NCBI GenBank assembly: GCA_017656135.1
Contig: JACDOJ010000007.1
Span: 975-64,974, forward strand
Source of the DNA: Bacillota bacterium
GTDB taxonomy: Bacteria > Bacillota > UBA5301
Length of the DNA stretch: 64,000 bases
Direction: 5' to 3'
The stretch's first letter is position 1; each line of letters opens with the position of its first letter. Made by a program: the position numbers and the translations under genes. A model generated the notes under the pieces. It was not told where the DNA came from, did no database searches, and saw only the letters and a program-made list of their open reading frames with translations. Of the stretch, positions 2,676 to 48,896 are shown in pieces.

Positions 2676-3590
2676 CTAGAAGTCCTGAGAGAAGACGACC
2701 TCTCCAGGACACTCCACCTCGGGGCTGGCTTTGTCCAACAGTTCGGTCAGGGGCACGATCTCATACCCGGCCGCTTCCAAACCTTCGATTATCTGCGGCA
2801 GAGCCTGAACGGTGTGTTTCCGGTTGTTCTTGGCTCCGTTGATCAGCCCGCCTCCGTCGTGAAAGAGCAGGATGTCGCCGGGCTGCACCCGGTTCAATAT
2901 ACGGTTCACCACCGCTTCCGGGCTTTTTCCCGGCATCCAATCCTCGCTGGAGAGGCTCCAGAGGACGATCCTAAGGCCCAAAAGCTCCGCCAAACGGCGT
3001 AGCTGTGCGTTATATAGTCCCCGAGGTGGGCGAAGAAACCGGGGATACTTCCCCCCGGCGTTTAAAATGGCAACTATGGTCTGGAAGATCTGGCTGGAAA
3101 GGGCGGGAGTGGAGAGAGAGGTCAGGTTGAGGTGATCGTAGGAGTGAATCCCCACCTCGTGCCCTTCGGAAACCATCCGCTCCGGAAGTTCGGGATAGGC
3201 GTCTACCTGAGAGCCTAAGAGGAAAAAGGTGGCGGGCACACCGTAGCGCCGCAAGATCTCCAGAATAGCCGGAGTGTAGGTTGGGTTTGGCCCGTCATCA
3301 AAGGTCAGAGCCACCTTTTTCTCTTCCTCGCTGCCTCGCCGGTAGATATCGGCTTGGCTGCCGAAACCATGGTAAACATAGAAGTTCCCGACTAATAGCA
3401 GCAACACTACAGCTAGTACAGGGGTACCGTAGTAAACCAGTATACTGGAAAGCGGCCCGTCCCCAACGACCCCAGCCAAGAGATAGAGTAACCCATAGGC
3501 AGCCAGAATACAGATGGTGACAATCCAACCATAGAGAAAAACCTTGCTCAAAAGCTCAAAGGCTTGTTGGTGCTGCTTCTTGAAGCTCAT
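2676..3590 (-). CDS. Polysaccharide deacetylase (NodB homology domain), membrane-anchored
   Basis: TFDDGP and HSYDH motifs; N-terminal TM segments. Confidence 0.8.
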   Translation of the reverse strand: MSFKKQHQQAFELLSKVFLYGWIVTICILAAYGLLYLLAGVVGDGPLSSILVYYGTPVLAVVLLLLVGNFYVYHGFGSQADIYRRGSEEEKKVALTFDDGPNPTYTPAILEILRRYGVPATFFLLGSQVDAYPELPERMVSEGHEVGIHSYDHLNLTSLSTPALSSQIFQTIVAILNAGGKYPRFLRPPRGLYNAQLRRLAELLGLRIVLWSLSSEDWMPGKSPEAVVNRILNRVQPGDILLFHDGGGLINGAKNNRKHTVQALPQIIEGLEAAGYEIVPLTELLDKASPEVECPGEVVFSQDF

Positions 3591-3653
3591 GATTCTCCCC
3601 CTAGACCAACCTATATTCTAATTTACGTCTCCTAGCTCGTCACCGTGCCATTT

Positions 3654-3683
3654 TTGGCATTGACACACTTGTCCAGGTATAAT
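3654..3683 (+). promoter_or_regulatory. sigma-A promoter for the leu operon (TTGGCA-18-TATAAT)
   Basis: TTGGCA at 3654-3659 and TATAAT at 3678-3683. Short leader with no T-box. Confidence 0.5.
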
Positions 3684-3770
3684 ATAGTAATTAAAAATTA
3701 CATATTGGTCTTTACCTCTCTGAAGAAGGGTTGTCCGCACAAGAAGACTAGAAGTTAGGAGGGAATTAAC

Positions 3771-5315
3771 GTGCGGAAGATCTTCGTTTTCGATACCACT
3801 CTGCGGGACGGCGAACAGACTCCAGGAGTCAGCCTCAACGCTGCCGAAAAGGTGGAAATCGCCAGGCAGCTGGAAAGGTTGGGAGTAGACTTGGTAGAAG
3901 CCGGTTTCCCTGTAGCCTCCCCCGGAGACTTTGAAGCGGTACAGCAAGTAGCCAAAACGCTGAAAAATACCGCCGTCGTCGCCTTGGCCCGAGCGGTCCC
4001 CAAAGACATCGAGGCCGCCGCCGAGGCTCTTAGGGAATCTGCATCTCCCGTCATCCACACCTTTATCGCCACCTCGGATATTCACATCAAGTACAAACTC
4101 AGAAGCACACCGGAAGAGGTTCTGGAGCGGGCGGTAGCCGCCGTCAAGCTGGCCAGAAATTACTCTGAACTGGTGGAGTTCTCGGCTGAAGACGCCACCC
4201 GCTCAGACCCCGCCTACCTTCGGGATGTCTTTGCTGCGGTGATCAAAGCCGGAGCCGGAATCATCAATATCCCGGACACTGTGGGGTATACCACTCCTGA
4301 TGAATTTGCCCAGCTCATCACCTATCTCAAAGAAAATACCCCAGGTATCGATAAGGTCCGGATTAGCGTCCACTGCCATAACGATTTGGGCCTGGCGGTA
4401 GCCAACACTCTTAAAGCGGTTTCCGTCGGAGCCAGCCAAGTGGAATGCACCATCAACGGCTTAGGCGAGCGGGCAGGTAACGCTGCCTTGGAAGAAGTCG
4501 TCATGGCCCTGCAAACCAGGAGCCAGCTCTACCAGGCCCAGACCGATGTGAACTCCAGGCAAATAGCTTTCACCAGCCGTTTGGTTTCCTCTCTAACCGG
4601 AGTCGGGGTGCAGCCCAACAAAGCCATCGTCGGCAAAAACGCCTTCGCCCACGAGTCCGGCATCCATCAAGACGGCATGTTAAAGAACCGGAACACCTAT
4701 GAGATCATGACCCCGGAATCCGTCGGCCTGACCCAAAGCCAGCTGGTCTTGGGGAAACACTCCGGCCGGCACGCCTTCAGAGCCCACTTGACGGAGTTAG
4801 GCTACTCTTTGAACGAGGAAGAACTGAACAAGGCCTACCAGCGCTTCATCGAGCTGGCAGATAAGAAAAAAGAGGTTACCGACCGAGATATCCAGGCTAT
4901 CGTTGAAGACGAAACCCAGAAGATCGAGGAGCTCTACACCTTGGAATACCTTCATATTTCCAGCGGAAACACCACCGTCCCCACCGCTACAGTGATCATC
5001 AAACATCAGGATGAACTCCTGCAGGAAGCAGCCTGTGGCGACGGCCCGGTGGACGCCGTCTACAAAGCCATTGAAAGGGCGACCGGCATCGATGTCTATC
5101 TAGAATCCTGGTCCATCGAAGCCGCCACCGGTGGAAAAGACGCCCTCGGGGAGGTCACGGCCCGCATCCTGGCCGACGGCAAATCTTACATCGGCAGGGG
5201 CAGCAGTACCGATGTCATCGTAGCCAGCGCCAAGGCCTATCTCAGAGCCCTCAATAGATACCTACAAGACACCGCATCAAACAGACCTCAAAGGAGGAAA
5301 GCAGCATGGGAATGA
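3771..5315 (+). CDS. leuA: 2-isopropylmalate synthase
   Basis: GTG start. N-terminal [10 protein letters not shown]. HxH..D catalytic TIM barrel and C-terminal LeuA regulatory domain. 514 aa. Confidence 0.9.
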
Positions 5316-6592
5316 CCCTGACCGAAAAGATCCTGGCTGCCCACGCCGGTAAAGAGCGAGTGGAACCGGGAGAACTAGTAAACTGCCGGGTGGATCTGGT
5401 CTTAGGCAATGACATCACCGCCCCTGTAGCTATAGAGGAGTTTTCCAAAATCGGCGTCAAGGAGGTCTTTGACCGGGACCGGGTTGTCCTGGTCCCCGAT
5501 CACTTCGTACCGAACAAAGACATCAAATCAGCCGAACAGGCCAAAGTACTCCGGGACTTCGCCCGGGCGCAAAACCTGACCTACCGCTTTGACGTGGGCA
5601 CCATGGGGATTGAGCACTGCCTCCTGCCGGAAGCAGGCCTGGTGGGACCAGGGGATCTGGTGGTAGGAGCCGACTCCCACACCTGTACCTACGGGGCTCT
5701 CGGCGCCTTTTCCACCGGGGTCGGCAGCACTGACCTGGCTGCAGCCATGGCCACCGGCGAAGTCTGGTTCAAAGTTCCCCAGACCAGCAAGTTTACCTAC
5801 CACGGGAAACTGCAACCCTGGGTGAGCGGAAAAGACCTCATCCTCTACACCATTGGCGAGATCGGAGTCGACGGTGCCCTCTACCAGTCCATGGAGTTCT
5901 CCGGAGAGGCCATAGCCCGGCTCTCTATGGATTCCCGGTTTACCATGGCCAATATGGCCATCGAGGCCGGAGCCAAAAACGGAATCTTCCCGGTGGATGA
6001 GATAACCGAGAGCTACATCGCCCACCGGCTGAAACGCTCATATAAAGTGTACCGCCCTGATCCGGATGCCACCTACGCCGCCGAGTACGACTTCAACGTA
6101 GAAGAAATTGAGCCTCAGGTGGCTTTTCCCCACCTACCGGAAAATACCAAGGGCATCAGCGAAGCCGCCGGAGTGGTCATCGACCAGGTAGTCATCGGGT
6201 CCTGTACCAACGGGCGGTTAGAAGACTTGAGGGTAGCTGCCAGCATCCTCAAAGGCCGGAAGGTTCATCCTGAGGTCCGGCTCATTGTCATCCCTGGGAC
6301 CCAGCAGATTTACCTCGATGCCCTTAAAGAGGGGATCATCGAAGTGTTGATCCAGGCCGGTGCCGCCGTTTCCACCCCCACCTGCGGTCCCTGTTTAGGT
6401 GGACACATGGGGATTCTGGCCAAGGGCGAGAGAGCTCTGGCTACCACCAACCGCAACTTCGTCGGCCGGATGGGACATCCGGAATCAGAGGTCTATCTGG
6501 CCGGCCCCGCCATCGCTGCCGCCAGCAGCGTCCTGGGCCGGATCGCAAGCCCCGTCGAGCTGGGTCTGAAGGAGGTATCCACTGTAGCATGA
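5306..6592 (+). CDS. leuC: 3-isopropylmalate dehydratase large subunit (short type)
   Basis: Aconitase-family motifs (GSCTNGR, CGPCLG). 428 aa. Overlaps leuA. Confidence 0.9.
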
Positions 6593-7089
6593 AACTGACT
6601 GGACGAGTTTGGAAATTCGGCGACAACATCGACACCGATGTCATCATCCCTGCGCGCTACTTGAACTCAGCCGATCCGGCCAACCTGGCCGCCCACTGCC
6701 TGGAGGACGCAGATCCGGATTTCCCCAGCAAAGTTCAAGCGGGAGATATCATCGTCGCCGGCAAGAACTTTGGCTGCGGCAGTTCCCGGGAACACGCCCC
6801 GCTGGCCTTGAAGGCAGCAGGAGTAGCCTGTGTCATCGCTCCAACTTTCGCCCGGATTTTCTACCGGAACGCCATCAACATCGGCCTCCCGATTTTGGAG
6901 TGCCCGGAGGCTGCTCGAACCATCCAAGAAGGAGACAAAATAAGCGTGGATTTAGAAACCGGTACTATCACCCACACTGCCACAGGCAGTACCTGGCAGG
7001 CCAAACCTTTCCCATCCTTCATGCAAGAGCTGATTGGCGCCGGCGGCCTCATTGCCTACACCCGAAAGAAGGTGACCGGGCATGCCTAA
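6589..7089 (+). CDS. leuD: 3-isopropylmalate dehydratase small subunit
   Basis: 166 aa aconitase swivel domain; overlaps leuC stop. Confidence 0.9.
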
Positions 7090-8185
7090 GATCGCCCTCC
7101 TACCCGGTGACGGCATTGGAAAAGAAGTGGTGCGCGAAGCGGTCAAGATTCTATTAGCCGTCGGCAAGCGCTATAACCTAGATTTTGTCTTTGAAGAAGG
7201 GCTTATTGGGGGCTCTGCTTATGATGCCACCTCTTCCCCTCTTCCTCCGAAAACCATCGACCTCTGCCTTGGGGCTGATGCCGTACTTTTAGGGGCGGTG
7301 GGAGGCCCCAAGTGGGACGATCTTCCGGGAAACTTGCGGCCTGAAGCAGGCCTTTTGGGAATCCGCAAGGCCCTGGGCCTCTACGCCAATCTCCGGCCGG
7401 CCCGGGTGTTTCCCGGCTTGACTGGGGCTTCTCCCCTGAAAGAAAAGGTGGTTTCCGGAATCGATATCCTGGTGATCAGGGAACTCACCGGAGGAATCTA
7501 CTTCGGCGAGCCCCGGGGACGGGAAAAGCTGGTTTCAGGGGGAACCAAAGCCTATGACACCATGGTCTACACCACCGAGGAGGTCCGACGCATCGCCGAG
7601 CTGGCCTTCGAAATCGCGGCAAAACGCTGCGGCCGGGTGACCTCGGTGGACAAAGCCAATGTCTTGGAATCCTCCAGGCTCTGGCGGGAGGTGGTCCGCC
7701 AGGTGCACCAGAGATATCCTGACGTGGTCCTCACCGAAATGTATGTGGATAATTGCGCCATGCAGCTGGTCAGAGATCCGGGTCAGTTCGACGTTATTTT
7801 AACCACCAACCTCTTCGGGGATATCCTCAGCGATGAGGCGGCCATGCTCACCGGCTCTTTGGGTATGCTGCCTTCAGCCAGCCTAGGCGGCAGTGTCGGG
7901 CTGTATGAGCCTGTACACGGCTCAGCCCCGGATATCGCCGGAGAGAACAAGGCCAATCCTCTGGCCACCATCCTCTCAGCGGCCATGCTGCTCCGCTATT
8001 CCCTAGGACTCCATCAGGAGGCCCAGGCCATCGAAGACGCGGTAGAAGCCGCTCTCCTGGCCGGGTACCGCACTTTAGATATCGCCGCCGGCTCCTGTCA
8101 GGTAGTTAGCACTTCCCAAATGGGGGATCTGGTGGCGGGCTTCATCCGCCAGGGCAGCCAGCCTGGCAAGGCAGGTGCTCTCTGA
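7082..8185 (+). CDS. leuB: 3-isopropylmalate dehydrogenase
   Basis: Isocitrate/isopropylmalate dehydrogenase family motifs ([25 protein letters not shown]). Confidence 0.9.
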
Positions 8186-9780
8186 TGGAGAAAGAAATCA
8201 TACTCTATGATACAACACTCAGAGACGGCACCCAAGGAGAAGGCATCTCCTTCTCCTGTGAAGATAAGCTGCGCATCGCCCGGCGCCTGGACGCCCTAGG
8301 CATCACCTATATAGAAGGCGGGTGGCCCGGCTCAAACCCTAAGGACATTGCCTTTTTCCAGGAGGCAGCCAAGATCCGCTGGCAGAACGCCACCATCACC
8401 GCTTTTGGCAGCACCCGCCGGCCGGGTATTAAACCTAGTGAAGACAAGAACCTCGCCGCCATATTGGATTCAGGGGTTAAGGTAGCAACGATCTTCGGCA
8501 AGAGTTGGGATTTTCACGTCACCAACGCCCTCCGGACGACTTTAGAGGAAAACCTGGCCATGATCACCGAGAGCATTAGCTTCCTCACCTCCCACGGCCT
8601 AGAGGTCTTCTTTGATGCTGAGCACTTCTTCGACGGGTTCAAGGCCAACCCGGACTATGCCCTCCGAACCCTTCAGGCAGCAGTGAAGGGAGGTGCCAAG
8701 TGCCTCATCCTCTGCGACACCAACGGAGGCACCCTTCCGTCGGAGATCGGGCGGATTATCCAACAACTCGGTGACCTCGAGGTGCCCCTGGGGATCCACG
8801 CCCACAACGATTCGGGAGTGGCCGTGGCCAACACCCTGGTAGCGGTGGAGCACGGGGCTCGCCAAGTTCAGGGGACCATCAACGGCATCGGAGAGCGGGC
8901 AGGCAACGCCGACCTCTGCAGCGTCATTCCTAACTTGCAGCTTAAGATGGGTTTCGACTGCCTGAGCCCAGAGCAGCTGGCCACCTTGACCAAAACCTCC
9001 CGCTTTGTCTGGGAGCTGGCCAACACCCACCCGATTCCCGGCCAGCCTTTTGTGGGACGAAGCGTCTTTGCCCACAAAGGCGGTATCCACGTCAGCGCCC
9101 TGCGTCGCCACCCCGAGACCTATGAACACATTCCCCCGGAAAAGGTGGGCAACTCCCGCCGGGTGCTGGTTTCCGAGCTTTCCGGAAGCAGCAATATCCT
9201 CTACAAACTGGATGAGTACGGTCTGGACGCAGAGTCGGCCCCCTTCTCTCCCAACCGGTTGGTAAGCATCATCAAGGAGATGGAAAACCAAGGCTACTAT
9301 TTCGAAGGTGCCGAAGCCTCCTTTGAAATCCTCTTGAAAAAAGCCCTAGGCCTCTATGAGAAACTTTTCGAGCTGATTGGGTTTCGCCTGATCATCGAGA
9401 AACGCTCCGCGGACGAAGAACCGCTGGCTGAGGCGACTATCAAAGTTAAAGTAGGCGAGCAGGTCATTCACACCGTGGCTGAGGGGAACGGCCCGGTCAA
9501 CGCCTTGGACGCTGCCTTACGCAAAGCCCTGGCCAAGGTTTACCCTCAAATCAGTCAGATTCACCTCACCGACTACAAGGTCAGGGTGCTGGACGAAAAA
9601 TCCGGCACCGGGGCCAAGGTGAGAGTCTTGATCGAGTCCAGTGATAACGGCCGGGCCTGGGGAACCGTAGGAGTTTCCACCAACATCATCGAGGCCAGCT
9701 GGCGGGCTCTGGTGGACAGCATCGACTACGGCCTCCGCCTGGTGGAATCCCAGAAACTAGCGACCACTAATTCCGAGTAA
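8185..9780 (+). CDS. cimA: (R)-citramalate synthase (LeuA-family, CimA type)
   Basis: N-terminal YDTTLRDGTQGEGISFS typical of the CimA subfamily. 531 aa with C-terminal LeuA-dimer domain. Co-operonic with leuCDB. Confidence 0.8.
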   Translation: MEKEIILYDTTLRDGTQGEGISFSCEDKLRIARRLDALGITYIEGGWPGSNPKDIAFFQEAAKIRWQNATITAFGSTRRPGIKPSEDKNLAAILDSGVKVATIFGKSWDFHVTNALRTTLEENLAMITESISFLTSHGLEVFFDAEHFFDGFKANPDYALRTLQAAVKGGAKCLILCDTNGGTLPSEIGRIIQQLGDLEVPLGIHAHNDSGVAVANTLVAVEHGARQVQGTINGIGERAGNADLCSVIPNLQLKMGFDCLSPEQLATLTKTSRFVWELANTHPIPGQPFVGRSVFAHKGGIHVSALRRHPETYEHIPPEKVGNSRRVLVSELSGSSNILYKLDEYGLDAESAPFSPNRLVSIIKEMENQGYYFEGAEASFEILLKKALGLYEKLFELIGFRLIIEKRSADEEPLAEATIKVKVGEQVIHTVAEGNGPVNALDAALRKALAKVYPQISQIHLTDYKVRVLDEKSGTGAKVRVLIESSDNGRAWGTVGVSTNIIEASWRALVDSIDYGLRLVESQKLATTNSE

Positions 9781-40096: not shown

Positions 40097-40477
40097 TTAG
40101 CCTGCGTTCCTGGCGAAACTCCGAATATTTCCGGACCGTTCAGGTTTGACGTTATCAAAATGCCTGGCGATTTCCGCATGAATCCGCTCTTCCAGTTCGT
40201 TGAGGCGAGTAGCCAAACTCATGTCAATAATGGTATCGCCCATCTGAACGATCATGCCACCGAGGATCGATGGGTCGATCACATTGTTCAGCTCCACGTC
40301 TTTGCCGGTTAACTCCTTGAGGACCCGCCCCAGCTTCTCCCTAGCCTCGTCGTCCAAAGGGACTACCGTCTTGACCTTGGCTTTGGCCTTGGACTGGTCA
40401 AATTGAACCGTGATCCCGCGCCTGGTCTTGACCAGCTGGCCATATTCCCGAGCAATCTTCCTACGCCACCGCTCCAT
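40097..40477 (-). CDS. Truncated F-ATPase delta/OSCP C-terminal-domain-like protein, paralog 1
   Basis: C-terminal LTGKDVELNNVIDPSILGGMIVQMGDTIIDMSLATRLNELEE aligns closely with the delta-subunit C-terminal segment (LTGKKVEL..VDPSLIGG..GDRVIDGS..RL.QL). No delta N-terminal domain. GGAGGG RBS at the ATG at 40477. Confidence 0.7.
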   Translation of the reverse strand: MERWRRKIAREYGQLVKTRRGITVQFDQSKAKAKVKTVVPLDDEAREKLGRVLKELTGKDVELNNVIDPSILGGMIVQMGDTIIDMSLATRLNELEERIHAEIARHFDNVKPERSGNIRSFARNAG

Positions 40478-40701
40478 CTCTTTCCCTCCTTTCGGTATGT
40501 AGGCAGCCCCCCCTGTAGGGGGGGTGCCCCTTATGCTGCTTCGGGGAGCCAGAATAAGCTCCCCGAATCTTGCAATCACACAATAAGTAAATTGTCGCTA
40601 ATTTCAGTATTTTTGAAATGTTTTAACTCCGGGCTCCATTAGAATAATTAGCCATTATCTGGTAAAAATCCTTTTTTTACCGCCTCTTTTTACTATATAA
40701 T

Positions 40702-41085
40702 TTATGCAGTAGTGTCAAAAAATACCCCGCTGTTGGCCTCTTTGCCTTCGGAAAATTCCTCGTGAATCCTTTGGTGAATGGATTCGGAAAGCTTTTCCAA
40801 CCGAGACTTCATGCTGAGATCGATGACCAGATCGGCAGTGGTGATAATCATACCGGCGATCAGGGAAGGATCCAGTTTGTTAACGATCCGTACTCTCCTC
40901 CCGATCAAGTCTTCCAGCGCCCGGGCCAGGTCTTTCTTATTTTGCTCAGAGAGCTCCACCACCGTAAAGACCTTGGCCACCACACTGTCATTAACCCGAA
41001 ACCCTCCTAACGGCCCATCGCTCATCCGTTGGTACTCCTGGGCTATTCGACTCCGCCATCTTTCCACAGAAACACCCCCTTCCAT
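40702..41085 (-). CDS. Truncated F-ATPase delta/OSCP C-terminal-domain-like protein, paralog 2
   Basis: RVRIVNKLDPSLIAGMIITTADLVIDLSMKSRLEKLSE matches the delta C-terminal consensus. Start placed at the ATG at 41085. Confidence 0.7.
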   Translation of the reverse strand: MEGGVSVERWRSRIAQEYQRMSDGPLGGFRVNDSVVAKVFTVVELSEQNKKDLARALEDLIGRRVRIVNKLDPSLIAGMIITTADLVIDLSMKSRLEKLSESIHQRIHEEFSEGKEANSGVFFDTTA

Positions 41086-41107
41086 ATCAATATCCCCACC
41101 CCCGGCA

Positions 41108-41150
41108 TCAGGGGGGAAAAACAAAAGCCAGAGCTTTTGCGCTCTGGCTT
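41108..41150 (-). terminator. Terminator-like hairpin plus T-run inside the leader of paralog 2
   Basis: AAGCCAGAGC-ttttgc-GCTCTGGCTT perfect hairpin followed on the minus strand by TTTTGTTTTT. A TTTGCA-17-TATAAT promoter lies upstream at approx. 41195-41230. Confidence 0.5.
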
Positions 41151-41275: not shown

Positions 41276-42907
41276 TCAGTTGGCTTTTTCCTGGCGGGCG
41301 ATGGTGATCAGGGCCTCCTGGTCCAGGTCATCCACCATATACAATCTGCCCTTGCCTCTTTTAGCCAAGTCCCGAAGGAACCTCTCATCGGGTTTCAACC
41401 CAATTACCACTAGTCGTGCTTTGACCTGCGGGATAAGCTCAACCGCCTCCAAGGCATCGGCCACCGGGTCGGAGGTGCAGAGAGGAACTGTGGGCAGGCC
41501 GTCAGTAATCAAAATCAGCAGCGGGTTCTTGGCCCGGGCCTTCTTGAGAAGCTTGACCCCTTCCACCAGACCACTGGCCAAAGGAGTGAGTCCCTCTGCC
41601 TCCACTCTGTGCAGACCACGCCGGAGCAATTCGTAGTTGCGGGTGAATTCGCTGGCCACCGTCGCTTCTTTGTTTTGAAAAATCACCACCCCTACCCGGT
41701 CTTTGGTAGTCAAAATGAGGTGCTCAGCCAGGTTTACGGCGGCCCGCAAGCGTTTACCCCGCATACTGGTGCTGGCATCGATTAGAAGCAGGATATCCCG
41801 GGGTTTTTTTGGGTTCTTCCTGTATACCCGCAGATCGGCTCGGGTAATTCCGGTCTCACCGCCGCCCCGGAGGAAGTTGTTTTTCTTGGCTGCTATCACT
41901 GTCTCGGAAACAGCGATGTTCCCAGCCCACTCCGCGTCTTCTAGGGGAACGATCTTGCCCCGCTCCGAATCCACTCTCCTCTGCCTGGGATTATCTTCGA
42001 AACTCACCGGCTGTAACTCGGTAACCGAAACCGGCACCTTGCGAATGATCTTCTTAAACTCAGCTTCCAGTTCCTTACTCCGGCTATTCGCCAGCTTGCG
42101 CAGCTCGACCCCTTCATCAGTAAGCCTGTAGCCACCCCAGAGGGTTCGCTTGGCGTACCCGGCTTGAATCAACTGGTTCAAAACTGGGGTGAGGCCGGCG
42201 TGACGCTCAGAGAGCTGGGCTATGGAAGGCGCAACCTTGACAGTCGGGTCCAAGGCCTCCAAGACCTCAACCGCCGCCTGCGTTGAGCCCACTGCCTTGG
42301 CTAAGAACAAAAGCTGCTGCTTTTGGGACAGCCAGGCGAAAGGATTGACTCCCCGAAAGCCGGTGACCGCTGCGGCGGTCTCCGTGATCTGAGAGCTACT
42401 TTGAAAGTCCGGTCCTAAATACTCCTGATGTACCAGCTTCTCCACCTTACGGATTTGCACGCCCTGAGAAGCCAGAAACTCTTCCACTTTATTTACCAAA
42501 ACAGGAATGTAGATGTACTGGCTCTGGGCCAGAGGGACTAAAATGTGCAGGTGGTTGGCTTCCTTGCCGGTCTCCACCGCCAATTCCGGCAGGTCCTCCC
42601 CAGGAAAGCGGATGGCCATTTCGTCCTTTAGGCCCTTCACTACATCTTCAGGATTAGCCACCAGGCCCGGGGCATGAAAAACATCCAGGTGCACGTATCT
42701 CTCAGGAGCCGCCCCCAGATAAAACTGGCCCGCATCGAGGTTAGAGAGAATCACAATCTGGCCGGGATTAGTTCTGTCCACTTGGTGCAGGCGCTTACTG
42801 ACCACCGAGCTTTCCCCAACCCTGAGGCCCTGAGAGTGATCGATGTATTCGCTGAAAAAGGTATTTAACTCCGAGCGATGCTCAGCCAGAATTGCTAACA
42901 GGTTCAT
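41276..42907 (-). CDS. ChlD-like von Willebrand factor A (VWA/MIDAS) domain protein
   Basis: C-terminal VWA domain with MIDAS DASTSM (DxSxS). 543 aa. Start is 3 nt downstream of the AAA+ gene stop. Confidence 0.75.
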   Translation of the reverse strand: MNLLAILAEHRSELNTFFSEYIDHSQGLRVGESSVVSKRLHQVDRTNPGQIVILSNLDAGQFYLGAAPERYVHLDVFHAPGLVANPEDVVKGLKDEMAIRFPGEDLPELAVETGKEANHLHILVPLAQSQYIYIPVLVNKVEEFLASQGVQIRKVEKLVHQEYLGPDFQSSSQITETAAAVTGFRGVNPFAWLSQKQQLLFLAKAVGSTQAAVEVLEALDPTVKVAPSIAQLSERHAGLTPVLNQLIQAGYAKRTLWGGYRLTDEGVELRKLANSRSKELEAEFKKIIRKVPVSVTELQPVSFEDNPRQRRVDSERGKIVPLEDAEWAGNIAVSETVIAAKKNNFLRGGGETGITRADLRVYRKNPKKPRDILLLIDASTSMRGKRLRAAVNLAEHLILTTKDRVGVVIFQNKEATVASEFTRNYELLRRGLHRVEAEGLTPLASGLVEGVKLLKKARAKNPLLILITDGLPTVPLCTSDPVADALEAVELIPQVKARLVVIGLKPDERFLRDLAKRGKGRLYMVDDLDQEALITIARQEKAN

Positions 42908-42909
42908 GC

Positions 42910-44151
42910 TTAAAGGTCACCCTCGGTGGCGACCGCCTCATCCACTGCCAGTTCAGAGATAGGGCGGGCCGGTTTCGGAGGTGCCGGCTGCGTTTCTTTT
43001 GGACCGGACTTAACCCTGCCGGAGCCGAAGATCCTGGCCAGGCTACCAGTCGTTTTTTGGCTTTCCCTGTCTCTGGAAGAACCCTGAGGTTTCTCGGTGG
43101 TGAAACGCCTCTCCTTCAGATAAGTAAGGATCTCCTCCAGCCGTTCCGGGAAAACTCGATGGTTCAGTGCCCAGGGTAAGACGGCGACCACATCATAGAC
43201 CTCTACGTGGTGCCGTTTGTGCAGGGCGGCTCTGATTTGGGCCCCTAGCTGAGCTGCTTCCACGGCCCGAAGGCTCTCAATCCCAAACTTCACGTACACC
43301 TCCGCCAACAGGTCTTCCACGTAATCCGGGACCCAGAGGTCGTCCAGCATCTCGGCAGCGGCCAGCAGGCGTTTGCGGACCTGCTCGTTCCCACGGTGGG
43401 ATAGACCGGCCCGAGTGGAGGATTTTGTCCGTCTCTGCCGGTTCTGGCGGAGGATGCCGGCAACAGCCTCCACTTTATCCGGCCGGCCCATATCAATCAC
43501 AAGGTCAAACCGGTCAGAAAGCTGTTTGCGGACGTCGCTCAGAGGGCCCGGATCTTCGTCGGGGTTAGATGCCGCCCAGACCGAAACCTGAACCGGGACT
43601 TCCACAGCTGCCAAACCCGTTTCTTCGATTTGCACCCGGCCAGGCTTGGTTCCCATGACGTCCAGAAGGATGTCGGTGATTTCCGGCGAGGTATCAGCTA
43701 AGCGGTTGATTTCATCGATGAAGATGATCCCCCGGTGAGCCTGGGGAATAATGCCAGGGAGCAGCGCGGCCTCTGGGTGGGTTTTATCAGTAATCTTGGC
43801 CAAATCAATGCTGCCGGCCACCGTGCCGATCTTGGCCGAGTGAGAGATCTCCAAGAAAGGCATGAGGATCTCTTCTGTCCCGATCCGGTCAATCTCTTCC
43901 GGAGAGAGGTTTCGGTGCTCCGGGCAGTGGGGCTCCGCCGGATCACAGTTGTAGAGACAGCCTTTGATCCGGGTTATCGTCGGCATCACCCCGGCCGCCG
44001 ACCGAAAAATGGTGGTCTTGCCGGTTCCCCGCAGGCCTTCGGCGTGGACGTGCAAAGGCAATCCGGCGAGGGTCGAGACAATAGACATTTCTACGGCTTC
44101 GAAAAGTGCTTCGTTTCCCTGGTACCTGGCTAGGTCCGAATAGAGCTTCAT
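42910..44151 (-). CDS. ChlI/BchI-type AAA+ ATPase (Mg-chelatase I-subunit family)
   Basis: Walker A GLRGTGKTT. Walker B IIFIDEINRL. ChlI-like arrangement. 413 aa. Confidence 0.75.
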   Translation of the reverse strand: MKLYSDLARYQGNEALFEAVEMSIVSTLAGLPLHVHAEGLRGTGKTTIFRSAAGVMPTITRIKGCLYNCDPAEPHCPEHRNLSPEEIDRIGTEEILMPFLEISHSAKIGTVAGSIDLAKITDKTHPEAALLPGIIPQAHRGIIFIDEINRLADTSPEITDILLDVMGTKPGRVQIEETGLAAVEVPVQVSVWAASNPDEDPGPLSDVRKQLSDRFDLVIDMGRPDKVEAVAGILRQNRQRRTKSSTRAGLSHRGNEQVRKRLLAAAEMLDDLWVPDYVEDLLAEVYVKFGIESLRAVEAAQLGAQIRAALHKRHHVEVYDVVAVLPWALNHRVFPERLEEILTYLKERRFTTEKPQGSSRDRESQKTTGSLARIFGSGRVKSGPKETQPAPPKPARPISELAVDEAVATEGDL

Positions 44152-44537: not shown

Positions 44538-44837
44538 TTAAAACTCTTGATGAATTTTTTCGTGAATGGATTCTGAGAGTTTCTCCAGCCTGGAAGCCAT
44601 GCTCATGTCAATCACTAGGTCGGAAGTTCGGATGACCATACCGGCAATAATCGACGGATCCAGCTTGTTTTTAATCCGGCACTTCTTCCCGGTCAGTTCT
44701 TCCAGGGCTTCCTGCAGTTCTAGTATTTCCTCATCCTTCAGTTTTACCACGGTAATAACTTCTGCCACGGTTTCGAAAGGGGACAAGTGGGAGGTGGCCA
44801 AGTAGTCTCGCTGCAAGCGTTCACGCCATTTGTTCAT
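44538..44837 (-). CDS. Truncated F-ATPase delta/OSCP C-terminal-domain-like protein, paralog 3
   Basis: LTGKKCRIKNKLDPSIIAGMVIRTSDLVIDMSMASRLEKLSE. 99 aa from the ATG at 44837 with GGAGGAGGGG RBS. Confidence 0.7.
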   Translation of the reverse strand: MNKWRERLQRDYLATSHLSPFETVAEVITVVKLKDEEILELQEALEELTGKKCRIKNKLDPSIIAGMVIRTSDLVIDMSMASRLEKLSESIHEKIHQEF

Positions 44838-44920
44838 CGCCTTCCCCTCCTCCAAAAACCTCTCCACTATCATGATATTCAGCAGGCGGCAAAAGTGAAC
44901 GAATTCACTGAAAAGGGCGT

Positions 44921-44950
44921 GAAAAAACCCCCTAACCCTAAGGCAGGGGG
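44921..44950 (-). terminator. Rho-independent terminator after the FAD-oxidase/Fe-S gene
   Basis: CCCCCTGCCTTAGGGTTAGGGGG hairpin followed by TTTTTTC on the minus strand. Confidence 0.65.
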
Positions 44951-44984
44951 CCTAAATGGTCCGTATCGTTCTATCCACGCCGAA

Positions 44985-47900
44985 TTAAGCGGATTTTTGG
45001 GCTTTGAGCCTTTCGGCCATGGCTTCCATCATCTCCGGTTTGATCCTGGCCAGGACCTTAGGCAGCATCGCCGGCATCAACTGATTCATAACCGAAGGAA
45101 GGATCTGTGGCATCAGCTCCTCCATGGACTCCGGCATATCCGGGATGTTCTTCTTCATCAGCTTCAAGACTTCCGGCAGCATCTTGGGCATCATCTGGTC
45201 CATCATCCTGGGCATCATTGCCGGCATGATCTTCTCCATCAGGTTCAGCATGATCTTCTTGGTGGAGTTGGGCATCTTCTCCATCTTGTCCATGGCTGAC
45301 TGCATGATCTCCGGCATCATATCGAACATCTGGGGCATCAGTTCCAGCATCATGTCGGCCATGCCTTCATCGGTCATCTGGTTCAGCGCCTTCTCAAAGA
45401 CGGACCACATATACCGGATCACCGGAGTCGGATCTTTGACTTCATAACCCAAACCTTCAGCGATGATGCTGGCGAAGTCCCTGATGGTCACCTCGGTCCC
45501 TTCGGCGTCAGCTGCCGCCCTAAGTTGGAACTCACAGCAGGGGCAGGTGGTGACCAGAGCGTCGGCACCGACCTCATTGGCTTCCCTTACCCGCATGTCG
45601 CCGAGTTTGTCAGAAGCGGCGGTGGCCCCGATCCGGGTCAAAACGCTGCCGCAGCAAAGAGCGTTTTCCCGGTTGTGCTTCATCTCTACCAGCTTGACGC
45701 CGGGAACAGAGGCGATGGATTCCCTGGGTTCTTCGTAGATCTTACCGTGCCGCCCAATGTGACAGGGATCGTGCCAGGTGAGGATCTTCTCCACCGGTTT
45801 CTTAAACTTCAGCTTGCCTTCCTTGATTTTCTCGATAGTGTACTGGGAAAGGTGGACGACCTCAACATCCCAGTCTATGCCGAGCTTTTCTGCCCACTCC
45901 TTGTAGTGGTGGGCCAGAGTCACCCAACAGCCGGGACAAGATGCGATCAACTTTTTGATGCCGCGTTTTTTAATCTGCTCAATGTTGTAGCGCATGACCC
46001 GCTCCCAGCGCTCCCACTGCCCTGACATCAGGAAGGGTACACCACAGCAGGACTCATCCTTGCCTAAGTAGGTGAATTTTTCACCGGCCTCTTTGAGGAT
46101 GTGGACCGCGTTTTCAGCCACATCGGTGGTAACATAGGAAGCGGTACAACCGGCCCAGTAGCCGATCTCGCCTTCCGGTTGGATCTCAACATCTTCCGGC
46201 ACCCAGGCATCCCGCTCAGCCATGCGACCGGCCCAGATGTTCCTGGCGTTATCCCAGGCTGCACCCATCATCTCGAAACCGGGGAAGGTCTGGAAATTCA
46301 GCTCTTCCACGAATTTGCCTCTGAGCTTGCCCCAGAGCTTTTCGATGGGCAGGTTCACCTGGCAGACGTCATCACAGCGTTTGCAGGTCGTGCAGAGCAA
46401 AAAGTTATCCACGACCTCCTGAGTAAGCTCGGCCTTACCCTCCATGTACTTGCGGAGGAAGAACCACTTACCCCGCGGGGAAGAGCCTTCGGTGCGTTTA
46501 CCGGCGTAGAGTGTGCAGACGTTGTTGCAGTACCCACACTGGGCACAGGCGTAAGCAGCGTAGGCTACTTCTTTAGGCAATTTCTTGCTGTCTTTGCCCT
46601 CTTTCGGCAGAACTTTTTCGGCAATATCAGTGATCGGGCGTCCCCACTTAGCCATCTGCATGGCAATCGGCAGGAACTTACCTTTGCCCATGATGACCTT
46701 ATCTGGATTCAGCAGGGTCTTAGGATCAGTTTCAGCCTTGAAGGCCTTAACCTTGGCCAAAAGGTCTTTGCCTAAAACCCGTTCGGCCTCGTGGGCGAAG
46801 AAGAGACCCATGGCATAGGGCCGGCCGCCGTTTTTCTCGGCCAACTCCTTGACCAGCAAGGATTTGGTGTATCCCAGCATGTAGGCAAGGGTCCGTTCGT
46901 CAGAAGTCAGGAAGGCAAGGATGGTGGCTTCTCCATGGGAGGTCAAGGTCCCTTCCACGGCAATACCTTTGACCTCCTCGCTGACTTGTTTCAGGAATTT
47001 ATCCATGTTGTCCACAGGAACCAGGGCCTCACTGGGGATCAAGGAAGGACCTAGTTTCTTGAGGCGCATGGGGTAAAAACGCTCGCCCCACTCTTCTTCA
47101 GCCAGCTCGGTAGAGAGAATCTGAGCCCCGAACTCCTCTGCCAGTTTCTCCAGTTCGCCTTGGAGGTATTCCCTGCTCTCAGGGTAGGCAAACAGGACCA
47201 CCGGCCGGTCTTTAGGCATAACATGATGCTCTTTGGCCTCCTCCCGGCGCTTCACAAATTCAGGAGTACCAAAGTTGATGTGCCAGAAGGGGAGTTTCCG
47301 CTCATAGACAGTGTTCAAAGCGGCAGTCATGTGTTCTTCGTCGGGGAAAGCCAGAGCGGCGACAACGTCTTTTTCGGCGGGACGGAGTTTCAGAGTGACT
47401 TTAGTGATCAGTCCGGTGATACCCTCTGTGCCAACAAAGAGAGGAAGGTCTGTGCCGGAAGCCTCTTTGACTTCGCCGGTGAAAGTGACGATCTCCACGG
47501 CAGCTACGTTTTCCTGGATGTGCCCGTACTCAAAGCTTCCGATACCGGCACCACCTGCCGCAACCCAACCGGCGCAAGTAGCACCGGGAGCGCTGGTGGG
47601 ATAGAGACGCAGTGCTACCCCCTGCCGGCGCAGCTCATCTTCGAGGTTACTCCAAATGACACCGGCCTCAACCACAGCCTCCATTTTTTCCGGGTCAACC
47701 TTGATGATTTTGTCCATCCGAGTGAAATCGATGGTGATACCACCGCGGGTAGGCATGGAGCCGCCGTAACCACTGGTACCGGCGCCTCGAGGAGTTAAAG
47801 GCAGGTCGTAACGGTCTGCTAAAGCAATGATCTTCTGAAGTTCTTCCACTGTTACCGGCTGAGCCACAGCATCCGGAACCACTTTGAAGGGGGCAAGCAT

Positions 47901-48008
47901 GGAATCAGGCATGCTACCCACATCGTGGCTGTAAAGGAGCCGCTCGTTGTATTCGAAGTGGACTCGGTCGCCGAGGACCTCAGCCAGCTCCCGTTGCCAA
48001 TCTTTCAC
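44985..48008 (-). CDS. Fused FAD-linked oxidase (GlcD-like) / Fe-S CCG-domain oxidoreductase (GlcF/HdrD-like) with Met-rich C-terminal tail
   Basis: FAD_binding_4 motif RGAGTSGYGGS. Two CxxCxxCxxxC ferredoxin motifs. Two CCG (CxnCCG) domains. About 140 aa Met-rich tail at the C-terminus (MxxMP/LMP repeats). GTG start with GGAGGTG RBS. Confidence 0.8.
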   Translation of the reverse strand: MKDWQRELAEVLGDRVHFEYNERLLYSHDVGSMPDSMLAPFKVVPDAVAQPVTVEELQKIIALADRYDLPLTPRGAGTSGYGGSMPTRGGITIDFTRMDKIIKVDPEKMEAVVEAGVIWSNLEDELRRQGVALRLYPTSAPGATCAGWVAAGGAGIGSFEYGHIQENVAAVEIVTFTGEVKEASGTDLPLFVGTEGITGLITKVTLKLRPAEKDVVAALAFPDEEHMTAALNTVYERKLPFWHINFGTPEFVKRREEAKEHHVMPKDRPVVLFAYPESREYLQGELEKLAEEFGAQILSTELAEEEWGERFYPMRLKKLGPSLIPSEALVPVDNMDKFLKQVSEEVKGIAVEGTLTSHGEATILAFLTSDERTLAYMLGYTKSLLVKELAEKNGGRPYAMGLFFAHEAERVLGKDLLAKVKAFKAETDPKTLLNPDKVIMGKGKFLPIAMQMAKWGRPITDIAEKVLPKEGKDSKKLPKEVAYAAYACAQCGYCNNVCTLYAGKRTEGSSPRGKWFFLRKYMEGKAELTQEVVDNFLLCTTCKRCDDVCQVNLPIEKLWGKLRGKFVEELNFQTFPGFEMMGAAWDNARNIWAGRMAERDAWVPEDVEIQPEGEIGYWAGCTASYVTTDVAENAVHILKEAGEKFTYLGKDESCCGVPFLMSGQWERWERVMRYNIEQIKKRGIKKLIASCPGCWVTLAHHYKEWAEKLGIDWDVEVVHLSQYTIEKIKEGKLKFKKPVEKILTWHDPCHIGRHGKIYEEPRESIASVPGVKLVEMKHNRENALCCGSVLTRIGATAASDKLGDMRVREANEVGADALVTTCPCCEFQLRAAADAEGTEVTIRDFASIIAEGLGYEVKDPTPVIRYMWSVFEKALNQMTDEGMADMMLELMPQMFDMMPEIMQSAMDKMEKMPNSTKKIMLNLMEKIMPAMMPRMMDQMMPKMLPEVLKLMKKNIPDMPESMEELMPQILPSVMNQLMPAMLPKVLARIKPEMMEAMAERLKAQKSA

Positions 48009-48092
48009 GTTAGCACCTCCGCTAAATTCGCTAATTTTATAATTATTATATACCCTGTTTTATAAATAATGCAATAGGAGGTGCTTGTATCT

Positions 48093-48896
48093 TTAGTCGT
48101 TTTGCAGCCAGTTTTCCCTAAATAGCTTAATGAAATTTAGAATAAAGCGAAATTCCTTTTCATCCAGGTCGCAGACCATCTGAAGGAGGGCCTGGACCCT
48201 AGGTTCTGCCAGAAGCTTCTTGCATTCAGGCTTTAGGTTGGTTAAAAGATCTTCGGTCACCTGATCGGTTTCCAGAATTAAAGAACAGGGAGTTACGCCC
48301 AGGGCCGTGGCCAGCCGCTCCAGAGTTTCTAGAGAAGCACCGGATTTACCCTGTTCGATCTGGGCAACCAGGCTTGCAGAAACACCGGCTTTCCCAGCCA
48401 GCTCCTTCCGGGACATGCCTAAAGAGGTGCGGACGGTCTTGAGCCGTTCTCCCAGTTCACGAGGGTTCGTCCGGTTCATCACCACAGGGAGGGAGATGCC
48501 TAAGACGTCGGCGAGACGTTTAAGCACATCAATACTGGGGTTGACCTGGCCTCTTTCGATTTGGCTGAGGTAAGCAGGGGAAATGCCCGCCAGTTTACTG
48601 GTTTTAGTGAGGTTCCAGCCCTTGCGCACCCGGGCCACCTTGAGCTTGCCCCCTAAGTAGATCTCCTCCTCAGGGCCGTTTTGGCTGAGTTCAGGAGGCA
48701 AGAGGGCATTGGCGTCGATGCCCAGGGCTTCGGCGATCCGCATCACCGTTTTAATGGAAGGCCGTTTTTTGTTCTGTTCGATCTCGCTTAGATAAGAAGG
48801 AGAGACGCCCACCTTCTCCGCCAGCTGCACCAGAGTGTAATTACGGCTTTTGCGATGGCGTCGCAGTTCAGATCCGAGGTTCATAACTTCACCCAC
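48093..48896 (-). CDS. XRE-family transcriptional regulator with three tandem HTH domains
   Basis: Three repeats of the Cro/C1 HTH pattern (..LAEKVGVSPSYLSEIEQ.., ..SKLAGISPAYLSQIERG.., ..LAGKAGVSASLVAQIEQG..). Confidence 0.75.
   Translation of the reverse strand: MGEVMNLGSELRRHRKSRNYTLVQLAEKVGVSPSYLSEIEQNKKRPSIKTVMRIAEALGIDANALLPPELSQNGPEEEIYLGGKLKVARVRKGWNLTKTSKLAGISPAYLSQIERGQVNPSIDVLKRLADVLGISLPVVMNRTNPRELGERLKTVRTSLGMSRKELAGKAGVSASLVAQIEQGKSGASLETLERLATALGVTPCSLILETDQVTEDLLTNLKPECKKLLAEPRVQALLQMVCDLDEKEFRFILNFIKLFRENWLQND

Follow-up and report, generated by a model that had tools for sequence, protein, structure and literature searches.

What could a Met-dense extension be doing at the end of a flavin and iron-sulfur oxidoreductase? 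The question is raised by one gene in a 64,000-nucleotide stretch of DNA from a Bacillota bacterium (contig JACDOJ010000007.1), the whole of which we call the window. The gene is a complete coding sequence on the minus strand at 44985-48008, a single unbroken open reading frame (ORF) of 1007 codons plus a stop codon that starts with GTG at 48008-48006; the plus-strand translation of the same interval is full of stops. Its product, which is identical to an NCBI protein from a Bacillota metagenome-assembled genome (MAG; P0001), is a flavin adenine dinucleotide (FAD)/Fe-S/CCG oxidoreductase with a Met-rich C-terminal domain. An initial annotation, made by reading the DNA, had listed this 1007-aa ORF, which indeed exists and lies on the minus strand, and had proposed that its tail could be a membrane- or quinone-docking or partner-binding module. 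We found that the tail is a real, ancient and family-defining domain. It is attached to an enzyme whose flavin domain, as judged by alignment, lacks the metal site of its characterized relatives, and a docking role for the tail is possible. Residue numbers are counted from the GTG start. The alignment of relatives (68 sequences for the Cys counts) and the whole-protein AlphaFold model used the translation of 44985-48005; they lack residue 1 and are numbered one lower.

The Met-rich tail is conserved throughout the family

The Met/Pro-rich domain comprises residues 858-1007 (44988-45437, minus strand). Within residues 861-1007, 33 of 147 residues are Met (22.4%), compared to 2.7% in the body of the protein and 1.9% for long ORFs across the window (binomial P = 6.5e-21), and no other ORF of the window is Met-rich. 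The Met-dense peptide strings that the initial annotation had quoted from the tail are all present, and the recurring Met/Pro spacing that it described proved to be non-random when compared with 5000 composition-preserving shuffles (P <= 2e-4 for the lag-4, lag-8, lag-2 and Pro results). Met-Met pairs occur 17 times at lag 4 (7.9+-2.1 expected) and 15 times at lag 8 (7.5 expected), and are absent at lag 2, where 8.0 were expected. The excess at lag 3 (11 vs 8.0, P = 0.12) is not significant. Thirteen of the 14 Pro residues in the tail are directly preceded by M, L or I.

A segment of such biased composition could be a low-complexity artefact that is absent from orthologs, a test that the initial annotation had suggested. 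When the test was run, the tail was found in all full-length orthologs, and it is kept position by position in every full-length relative that we looked at (about 190 sequences). Among the homologs listed, all those of about 1000-1030 aa align over 97-100% of the query, and their C-termini contain 11-28% Met. Across the 112-sequence alignment, W868, F871 and P967 are invariant, M887, M898, M924, M958, M962 and M974 are Met in 91-96% of sequences, and ten further Pro positions of the tail are at least 94% conserved. In total, more than 20 tail columns are conserved at 90% or above, and the mean column entropy of the tail (1.77) is lower than that of the FAD-oxidase_C domain (1.97). About 12 tail positions are 85-96% Met across bacteria and archaea. 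Many of the Met columns also take Leu, and in lineages with lower Met content (11-13%) Leu, Phe or Val replaces Met while a core Met set is retained.

To place the family in a wider context, we scanned one genome per species with the full-length alignment as query. A relative was found in at least 598 species genomes, spread over more than 10 bacterial phyla and the archaea, and the best 80 of these matches all align through residue ~985-1006. Bacterial hosts among the best 80 belong to Bacillota, Chloroflexota, Actinomycetota, Bipolaricaulota, Aminicenantes, KSB1, Zixibacteria, Thermodesulfobacteriota, Bacteroidota and Pseudomonadota, and the archaeal hosts are Archaeoglobus, Methanoperedens, Methanosarcina, Methanolobus and Methanomethylovorans. 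At the 79 loci whose neighborhoods are described below, the tails are 126-174 aa long (median 138) and contain 13.8-24.6% Met, compared to 2.7% in the body, and 13% Pro. Altogether, the tail is a real, ancient domain that defines this family; its invariant W868, F871 and P967, its position-wise conservation and the confidence with which it is modeled (see below) rule out a low-complexity or disordered segment.

The tail is predicted to be a duplicated, five-helix fold

The AlphaFold (AF2) model of the whole protein is of high confidence, with a mean predicted local distance difference test score (pLDDT) of 92.4 and a predicted template modeling score (pTM) of 0.91. According to DSSP, the tail in this model consists of helices at 861-877, 880-896 (kinked near 890), 900-910, 914-954 and 960-1006. 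The first three helices constitute its N-terminal part (45279-45428, minus strand), with the invariant W868 and F871 in the first of them. Because the same five helices are predicted in context (pLDDT of 86-93 per block) and when the tail is modeled alone (pLDDT 92, pTM 0.79), we predict that the tail folds compactly and on its own.

The two long helices stem from an internal duplication. Residues 914-954 (45147-45269, minus strand) form the first unit, with a repeat core at 924-952, 'MEKIMPAMMPRMMDQMMPKMLPEVLKLMK', and residues 960-1006 (44991-45131, minus strand) form the second, with a core at 962-990, 'MEELMPQILPSVMNQLMPAMLPKVLARIK', that includes the invariant P967. At the 38-residue offset the two cores align with a score of 86, compared to 33.5+-6.3 for shuffled sequences (0/2000), and the segment preceding 924-952 is a weaker third copy (2/2000 shuffles). 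At the DNA level, the only trace of the repeat is a weak 12-nt periodicity at 45175-45218, and we therefore consider the duplication to be old.

When hydrophobicity is averaged over the family, both long helices follow an 'h-h-Pro-polar' rhythm with a period of 3.91 residues, and their hydrophobic power is 0.26 at 92 degrees vs 0.045 at 100 degrees. With this period and almost no power at 100 degrees, the sequences indicate that the hydrophobic stripe must wind round each long helix, which would require right-handed supercoiling or Pro-underwound helices and would leave no flat amphipathic face. A classical in-plane amphipathic anchor is expected to have a period of 3.6 and a cationic or aromatic face. 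Here, the period is 3.91, the median net charge of the tails is -1 (interquartile range -3 to +2), and no aromatic belt was found in the tail. In the protein as a whole, we found no transmembrane segment and no signal peptide, the maximum Kyte-Doolittle hydropathy over 19 residues (KD19) being 1.18. The Met-bristle amphipathic helices suggested by the initial annotation are thus retained in part: Met does lie on helical faces, but neither the periodicity nor the charge is that of a classical cationic anchor.

The hydrophobic positions of the tail are occupied by Met to an unusual extent. Of 58 hydrophobic tail columns, Met accounts for 45.8%, compared to 7.6% in the helices of the body, which points to selection on Met itself, beyond mere hydrophobicity. 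The tails contain a median of 1 His and 0 Cys, none of which is conserved.

Searches for relatives of the tail

We found no match to the tail in Pfam, NCBIfam, the PDB or BFVD (viral structures), and Pfam assigns nothing in this protein past about residue 855. Searching Pfam and PDB sequences with a tail profile at E <= 10 returned HEAT-like noise only, and a Foldseek search of the PDB with the tail model yielded no match (best E = 3, TM score 0.26). Two apparent kinships were considered and rejected. A weak similarity to DUF6918 in 9 of 37 tails (best E = 9e-4) was gone in 10 re-scanned tails, and the similarity to Lact-deh-memb (best E = 0.08) is not significant.

We then asked if the module occurs in other proteins, as the initial annotation had envisaged. 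A tail-only profile run on 1.84 billion representative proteins produced 539 matches at E <= 1e-3, of which 95 are at E <= 1e-10, and we inspected 149. These comprise 25 members of this enzyme family, with the CCG end directly upstream, 88 N-truncated fragments, 25 Met-poor proteins resembling phage tape measures, and 11 deletion or chimeric fragments on tiny contigs. The Met-rich module, as far as these sequences indicate, is restricted to this enzyme family and always fused. Apparent stand-alone tail genes were rejected, as such matches sit at contig edges. Two candidates for other fusions were rejected as well (P0138, L089 1217-1894 on a 2.3 kb contig; P0148, L090 101-772 on an 813 bp contig). 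In these short predicted proteins, an unrelated N-terminal fragment (hydrolase-like or UvrD-like) runs into the whole tail right at the conserved 'LGY/LGI' junction, and they are probably assembly chimeras or gene remnants. The tape-measure-like phage proteins (P0170, P0190, P0192, P0215, P0222 and 20 others) each contain 3-11 stretches that match the tail profile, with E values down to 2e-17. They are Met-poor (0-7%) and have no fold match in BFVD, and their similarity to the tail is explained by a shared 'hydrophobic-hydrophobic-Pro' helical periodicity (LPxLL / ALPxII).

The initial annotation had also been reminded of the SRP54 M-domain and of Cu(I)-binding Mets motifs. As statements of homology or fold, neither likeness survives, as no Pfam, PDB or Foldseek match links the tail to them. 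The Met-rich helices of the SRP54/Ffh M-domain are thought to give a flexible hydrophobic surface for varied ligands, and the exchange of Met with Leu in the tail columns is reminiscent of this. Nevertheless, the tail has no SRP_SPB match (Pfam, E <= 10) and no Foldseek match, and differs in its h-h-P-x pattern, in its 38-aa duplication and in being part of a redox enzyme. Cu(I) Mets-motif proteins (Ctr1 MxxxM, CopC/PcoC, CusF/CusB, the Met-rich insert of CueO, SilE) share the dense MxxM/MxxxM spacing on helices. They are extracytoplasmic or membrane-embedded and usually have His or Trp co-ligands, whereas the tail is predicted to be cytoplasmic, has no conserved His or Cys, and is not homologous to them. 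In apolipoproteins (the 11/22-mers of ApoA-I, apolipophorin III), Pro-spaced helical repeats can form a closed bundle and open onto lipid. The analogy goes no further, as there is no sequence relationship and the apolipoprotein helices have a 3.6 period with charged faces and are not Met-rich. Finally, helical membrane plugins (HMPs; YjlC, ForE, HucM) are hydrophobic tubes that give soluble oxidoreductases access to quinones and, like the tail, are all-helical, hydrophobic-lined and ~140 aa long (PMC13433803). They differ from the tail in being separate subunits that form tetrameric tubes, and Met enrichment is not mentioned for them (PMC13433803). PDB searches found no sequence or fold match between the tail and HMPs, although the PDB copy used perhaps did not contain every HMP structure. 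The resemblance of the tail to SRP54 bristles, Cu Mets motifs, HMP tubes and apolipoprotein repeats is therefore one of principle only. The literature that we searched contains no description of a Met-rich module on CCG or HdrD proteins, and the tail domain itself appears to be new.

The enzyme body is a FAD/Fe-S/CCG fusion

All features of the body are encoded on the minus strand. Residues 45-183 are a FAD_binding_4 domain (47460-47876; Pfam E = 3.9e-37), with a Foldseek match to mouse LDHD, a D-lactate dehydrogenase, and residues 212-438 are a FAD-oxidase_C cap domain (46695-47375; Pfam E = 5.2e-9). These are followed by a ferredoxin-type dicluster domain at residues 485-552 (46353-46556; Pfam Fer4_8 and Fer4_17), with the Cys ligands C488/491/494/498 and C539/542/545/549. 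Next come two CCG motifs, C621-X32-C654C655-X35-C691xxC694 (45927-46148) and C749-X35-C785C786-X35-C822xxC825 (45519-45779; Pfam 744-830), which were read from the sequence and are covered by two Pfam CCG stretches (E = 1.7e-35, the best being 744-830). Both motifs are complete and have HdrB spacing (CX32CCX35CXXC and CX35CCX35CXXC), in agreement with the class motif CX31-39CCX35-36CXXC, and all of the ferredoxin-type and CCG cysteines are invariant across 68 relatives. The Pfam domains and complete Cys motifs thus bear out the fused flavin, 2x[4Fe-4S] and 2xCCG architecture read by the initial annotation.

Structural and sequence comparisons place the two halves of the body near different proteins. 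The flavin half superimposes on mouse LDHD (Foldseek E = 1e-24, TM score 0.85 normalized to the target, 24% identity) and is nearest in sequence to an unpublished PDB entry, 6v42. For the Fe-S/CCG half, the nearest solved module is mycobacterial EtfD (9ojn_A; E = 9e-48, PDB sequence match), and HdrB matches too. No NCBIfam equivalog cut-off is reached (TfrB, LdhH, GlpC, GlcF, TmcB, HmcF, DsrK, HdrB, GlcD, YdiJ). The best score for the Fe-S/CCG half is that of the thiol:fumarate reductase TfrB (158.4 bits vs a cut-off of 385, E = 2.4e-46); GlcD scores are 106.6 bits vs 567.9 needed (TIGR00387) and 80.1 bits vs 897 needed (PRK11230). Enzymes with a FAD/Fe-S/CCG fusion are known, examples being the Dld-II and DVU3071-type D-lactate dehydrogenases (PMC3949148). 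The body is thus a new member of a known fusion type, and its family is found under generic annotation only.

The flavin domain deserves closer inspection. In LDHD the metal ligands are H398, H405 and E442, with the adjacent catalytic H443, a register that is pinned by the sequence of the H405A mutant. In an alignment to LDHD (8jdc/8jdb) that has only moderate posterior confidence around the active site, these positions correspond to residue 358 (variable G/K/R/H), L364 (Leu in 108/112 sequences), P/A397 and Y398 (Tyr in 112/112). The window segment 46815-46919 (minus strand) holds L364, P397 and Y398. The family has its own set of invariant residues in this domain, namely R310, K317, S322, E327, D370, Y398, D428, N434 and K437. 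By alignment and family column counts, then, D-lactate and D-2-hydroxyglutarate dehydrogenases have a His-His-Glu metal site and a catalytic His that are missing from this flavin domain, which makes a classical 2-hydroxy acid an improbable substrate. The assignment to a glycolate/D-lactate type by the initial annotation holds for the fold (FAD_binding_4/FAD-oxidase_C, LDHD TM score 0.85) and fails at the metal site and the equivalog scores; a 'GlcD-type' label would be correct for fold, not for chemistry.

Which characterized enzymes come closest in layout? E. coli YdiJ, a D-2-hydroxyglutarate dehydrogenase, is likewise one ~1000-aa chain with N-terminal FAD_binding_4/FAD-oxidase_C domains, a Cys-rich Fe-S region, a CCG-type C-terminal part and no membrane subunit. 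The similarity is limited in sequence: BLASTP aligns only 165 aa of the FAD domain (33% identity) and, weakly, a second segment, and the YdiJ equivalog score is 65.6 bits vs a cut-off of 1350. Moreover, YdiJ keeps the His-His-Glu motifs 'FGHVDAGVLHV' and 'WGEHGKG', which are gone in this family, and it ends without a Met-rich domain, its final 150 aa being 1.3% Met. The order of two CxxCxxCxxxC motifs followed by two CCG motifs of HdrB spacing is shared with HdrD, HdrBC, EtfD and TfrB. HdrD/EtfD-type modules differ in working with a membrane cytochrome b (HdrE, or the EtfD N-terminus) or separate flavoprotein subunits, whereas the present enzyme has its flavoprotein in the same chain and no gene for a membrane partner nearby. 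None of HdrD, HdrBC, EtfD and TfrB has a Met/Pro repeat domain, and the C-terminal extension of EtfD is disordered (PMC13083937).

Genomic neighborhoods of the oxidoreductase gene

Neighborhoods were compared at 79 loci, and the counts given here are uncorrected for phylogenetic relatedness. No membrane or partner gene recurs across these loci, and a gene for an HdrE/DsrM-type membrane cytochrome b is found neither in the window nor among the recurrent neighbors. In Thermanaeromonas, Phosphitispora, Thermincola and Methanoperedens, the ortholog has unrelated neighbors. The idea of the initial annotation that the tail replaces a separate membrane subunit sits well with these results, which are compatible with a built-in docking module.

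Three kinds of dedicated regulator are found upstream of the enzyme gene. In the window, the upstream, co-directional gene (48093-48896, minus strand) encodes an XRE-type protein with three helix-turn-helix (HTH) domains (Pfam HTH_3 x3), which is probably a dedicated regulator of the oxidoreductase; the same type precedes the ortholog at 5 of the 79 loci (L006, L009, L010, L013, L034). An ArsR-type gene is upstream and co-directional at 13 loci, with a median gap of 36 bp (L011, L012, L030, L033, L035, L036, L038, L043, L050, L052, L059, L063, L065), and an HTH_17+PocR regulator is upstream at 6 (L023, L024, L037, L040, L053, L067). The ArsR/SmtB-type regulators have a conserved Cys before an ADPxR motif and, in some, a second Cys in the last helix. 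The presence of three kinds of dedicated upstream regulator suggests that expression of the oxidoreductase may be inducible by a signal.

Several neighbors with a potential bearing on function were noted. A CopA-like P-type ATPase adjoins the ortholog at 2 of the 79 loci. In a Chloroflexota MAG (L012), a CopA-like ATPase with an HMA motif (3004-5532), an ArsR-type gene (5588-5941) and the enzyme (6001-9033) are co-directional with short gaps; in Phosphitispora (L008), the CopA-like gene (3449-5680) is divergent from the ortholog. A copper link through neighboring P-type ATPases was rejected, as only two of the five are CopA-like and the other three have no HMA motifs. At three Aminicenantes-type loci, a MenC-type gene lies directly upstream and co-directional (L032 4655-5773, L046 4287-5408, L058 4724-5842), and its products pass the NCBIfam cut-off for o-succinylbenzoate synthase (TIGR01928; 330-344 bits vs 200.65). 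A link to a menaquinone operon was also rejected, as the MenC-type gene is preceded by glycosyltransferases and accompanied by no other men genes. In E. coli K-12 (L088), menI (5223-5633) and ydiJ (5630-8686) overlap by 4 bp on the same strand. In Methanosarcinales, a divergent gene for a pyruvate-kinase-like protein (~479 aa) lies about 180 bp upstream of the ortholog (a cluster of six including L076; region L068, L071, L073, L075, L076, L083), a possible hint at pyruvate- or 2-oxo-acid-related metabolism.

Possible roles of the tail

We tentatively favor the possibility that the tail is a Met-lined, malleable module that lies by terminal CCG clusters and contacts a hydrophobic partner, which would most probably be the membrane or some lipophilic acceptor. 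The enzyme would be a self-contained, cytoplasmic, single-polypeptide oxidoreductase. A substrate would be oxidized (or reduced) at the FAD domain of vanillyl-alcohol oxidase (VAO)/GlcD fold, and electrons would presumably run from FAD through the pair of [4Fe-4S] clusters of ferredoxin type to the two noncubane CCG sites of HdrB type. The CCG clusters of EtfD and HdrDE form the distal end, where catalysis or entry takes place, and electrons are relayed by the two [4Fe-4S] clusters (PMC13083937). By analogy with these systems, and because the Fer4 relay domain sits between the flavin and CCG domains, the CCG sites may be the terminal redox site here as well. The tail would be close to this site, since it begins 35 residues past the last cluster ligand, C825, with the invariant W868/F871 helix. 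It could then function as a thioether-lined hydrophobic docking or entry module whose likeliest partner would be the cytoplasmic membrane surface or a lipid-soluble carrier, perhaps menaquinone in most hosts and methanophenazine in Methanosarcinales. In this way, the tail would take over, inside one polypeptide, what is done elsewhere by HdrE or DsrM as a separate membrane subunit or by a helical membrane plugin.

We favor a docking or entry module because there is no partner gene and because this additional domain is conserved and strongly prefers Met, whose side chain is flexible and polarizable. A malleable Met surface would also suit a family whose hosts use different carriers, menaquinone and methanophenazine. 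There is some precedent among quinone-linked CCG proteins with no transmembrane helices: the CCG subunits of type-E succinate:quinone oxidoreductase (SQR), GlpC and GlcF have been proposed to act as monotopic anchors seated on the membrane via amphipathic helices (PMC2754724). In those proteins the proposed helices are within the CCG fold, whereas here there is a separate added domain, and the GlcF and GlpC cut-offs are not reached. The link that helical membrane plugins provide between soluble oxidoreductases and quinones (PMC13433803) is a second precedent. The MenC-type neighbors at three Aminicenantes-type loci and the ydiJ/menI overlap in E. coli hint, weakly and in a lineage-specific way, at a quinone link.

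A number of observations weigh against a docking role at a membrane or quinone. At ~41% hydrophobic columns, a tail of this kind could hide most of its Met inside a three-helix-type bundle. The tails are not cationic (median net charge -1), have neither an aromatic belt nor a transmembrane segment (maximum KD19 1.18), and show a period of 3.9, unlike the 3.6 of a surface-lying amphipathic helix. The complete HdrB-type CCG motifs fit disulfide chemistry at least as well as quinone reduction. Some of the host lineages, Bipolaricaulota and Dehalococcoidia among them, may often be without quinones, and the MenC-type neighbor is not part of a men operon. Finally, tail-less enzymes of like architecture, such as YdiJ, work without such a module.

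A bolder form of the proposal, about which we are doubtful, is that the Met/Pro repeat domain is a built-in conduit for a lipophilic ligand. A thioether-lined right-handed bundle, possibly formed across subunits, would house or extract menaquinone, methanophenazine or hydrophobic sulfur next to the CCG clusters. Such a conduit would be convergent with plugin tubes and unrelated to them, and it would be carried by a flavoenzyme that lost its 2-hydroxy-acid metal site and acts on a new class of substrate.

Could the tail instead be structural, with no membrane role? It might be a right-handed supercoiled hairpin or bundle for dimer or tetramer assembly, or a Met-lined groove in which a soluble partner, such as an electron-transfer or sulfur-carrier protein, docks on the principle of the SRP54 M-domain. 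Supercoiled helix packing rather than a flat amphipathic face is what the period of 3.91 and near-absence of 100-degree power suggest, and the internal duplication, the confidently predicted compact and autonomous fold and the neutral net charge of the tails are all consistent with it, as is a weak, sub-threshold similarity to HEAT-like and tape-measure helical repeats. Flavoenzymes of the D-lactate dehydrogenase fold are, moreover, commonly oligomeric. A pure structural coil, however, would be expected to use Leu, Ile and Val, whereas Met occupies 46% of the hydrophobic columns of the tail, and at ~12 positions its frequency is 85-96% across both prokaryotic domains. With no conserved partner gene nearby at the 79 loci and no fold match to known coiled-coil or repeat structures, we consider this explanation somewhat unlikely.

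A third explanation brings the chemistry of the CCG sites to the fore. If the tail formed a Met-lined tunnel or cavity that brings a hydrophobic disulfide, polysulfide, elemental sulfur or a thiol cofactor to the CCG clusters, the enzyme would be a substrate:disulfide (or sulfur) oxidoreductase and not a quinone reductase. This would account for the two complete CCG motifs of HdrB spacing and for the best NCBIfam similarity of the Fe-S/CCG half being to TfrB, albeit below the cut-off, with HdrB matching as well. The ArsR-type regulators at 13 of 79 loci, with their conserved Cys before ADPxR, are in keeping with it too; we take them to be reminiscent of thiol- or persulfide-sensing ArsR members. 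GlcD+HdrD pairings have also been proposed to function in archaeal heterodisulfide reduction (bioRxiv 10.1101/2022.12.01.518715). But there is no single disulfide cofactor common to the Methanosarcina, Chloroflexota, Bacillota and Bacteroidota hosts, and no sulfur-metabolism genes are conserved near the 79 orthologs, which makes a sulfur tunnel unlikely.

Decidedly unlikely, in our estimation, is a soft-metal domain in which stacked MxxM/MxxxM thioether sites sequester or sense Cu(I) or Ag(I), or are copper-regulated. In its favor, the excess of Met-Met pairs at i+4 and i+8 is highly significant (that at i+3, 11 vs 8.0 with P = 0.12, is not), about 12 tail positions are Met-specific, and Met-only Cu(I) sites do exist in Ctr1, CusA and CusB. 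The CopA-like ATPase at 2 of 79 loci and the ArsR-family regulators at 13 could be read in the same sense. Yet the protein is predicted to be cytoplasmic, with no signal peptide or transmembrane segment, and cytoplasmic Cu(I) sites normally use Cys, while the tail has no conserved His or Cys. Many of its Met columns accept Leu, Phe or Val, and some lineages are down to 11-13% Met. A neighboring copA is seen at few loci, HMA motifs are missing from the remaining three P-type ATPase neighbors, and the tail has no similarity to any Cu-binding family.

It is improbable that the tail is an antioxidant shield, in which surface Met would scavenge oxidants to guard the oxygen-labile CCG clusters and be recycled by Met sulfoxide reductases. 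Scavenging by Met is established for other Met-rich proteins, and the extreme Met density is next to O2-sensitive noncubane clusters. Scavenging, however, needs no position-specific conservation, duplicated repeat, Pro spacing or confident fold; Met content is alike in strict anaerobes and in the aerobic or facultative Neobacillus, Roseiflexus and Chitinophagales, and there are no msr genes near the enzyme at the 79 loci.

Very improbable is a cofactor-binding extension, for example one that ligates heme b by bis-Met coordination between helices, in place of the HdrE/EtfD heme. The (near-)invariant Met on paired long helices would provide ligands, and HdrD-type modules normally pass electrons to a b heme (PMC13083937). 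In HdrDE and EtfD, however, the heme is reached from the Fer4 clusters and not from the CCG end (PMC13083937), bis-Met ligation is rare, and the tail has no conserved His and no similarity to any heme protein. Lastly, that the tail is a low-complexity or disordered artefact or a mis-called frame, as its biased composition and weak 12-nt DNA periodicity might suggest, can safely be dismissed given its presence and alignability in all orthologs across two domains of life, the invariant W868, F871 and P967, the AF2 pLDDT of 92, and the one uninterrupted ORF with a Shine-Dalgarno (SD) sequence and terminator.

Expression signals and other genes of the window

The expression signals of the oxidoreductase gene lie at 48014-48074 (minus strand), within the 84-bp gap that follows the upstream gene. 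They consist of a promoter candidate, TTGCAT (48069-48074), 18 nt and TATAAT (48045-48050), and of GGAGGTG (48014-48020) as the SD sequence, which is separated from the GTG by 5 nt. The promoter was matched by eye only, and a consensus promoter scanner did not flag this TTGCAT/TATAAT site. Downstream, a terminator-like hairpin with a U6 run is found 32 nt past the stop codon (44922-44953, minus strand; RNA fold -18.4 kcal/mol, z = -1.9). Because it has its own promoter-like match and SD sequence upstream and a hairpin-U6 after its stop, the gene looks monocistronic.

Antisense to the tail-coding region is a 170-aa ORF (44787-45299, plus strand) with 16% His. The His content arises because this ORF is a mirror image of the ATG-rich tail DNA (ATG backwards is CAT), and we are almost certain that it is no gene. 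Among the other products encoded in the window are SpoIIE and an aldehyde:ferredoxin oxidoreductase, which suggest that the host is a spore-forming anaerobe. Elsewhere on the minus strand, three paralogous proteins of 160, 140 and 111 aa (40097-40579, 40702-41124 and 44538-44873) have Pfam OSCP matches (E = 3e-21, 5e-17 and 2e-18) that are confined to the C-terminal ~70 residues of the delta/OSCP subunit of ATP synthase. They surround a ChlI/MoxR-like AAA+ ATPase (42910-44151) and a VWA-domain protein (41276-42907), and no ATP synthase operon was noticed among the annotated genes at 36.9-55 kb. An OSCP-like trio with an AAA+ ATPase and a VWA protein is an unusual combination.

Implications for the enzyme family

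FAD/Fe-S/CCG fusions are widespread in anaerobic energy metabolism yet poorly characterized, and the family described here spans methanogens, archaea related to anaerobic methanotrophs (ANME), Chloroflexota and Bacillota. With Met at 46% of its hydrophobic positions, the tail is among the most Met-dense folded domains that one could expect, and at a minimum it merits its own family definition. If the tail does dock the enzyme to its acceptor, it would give a sequence signature with which to find such enzymes, and it would represent a third route, besides cytochrome b subunits and plugin tubes, by which soluble HdrD-type modules reach lipophilic or hydrophobic acceptors.

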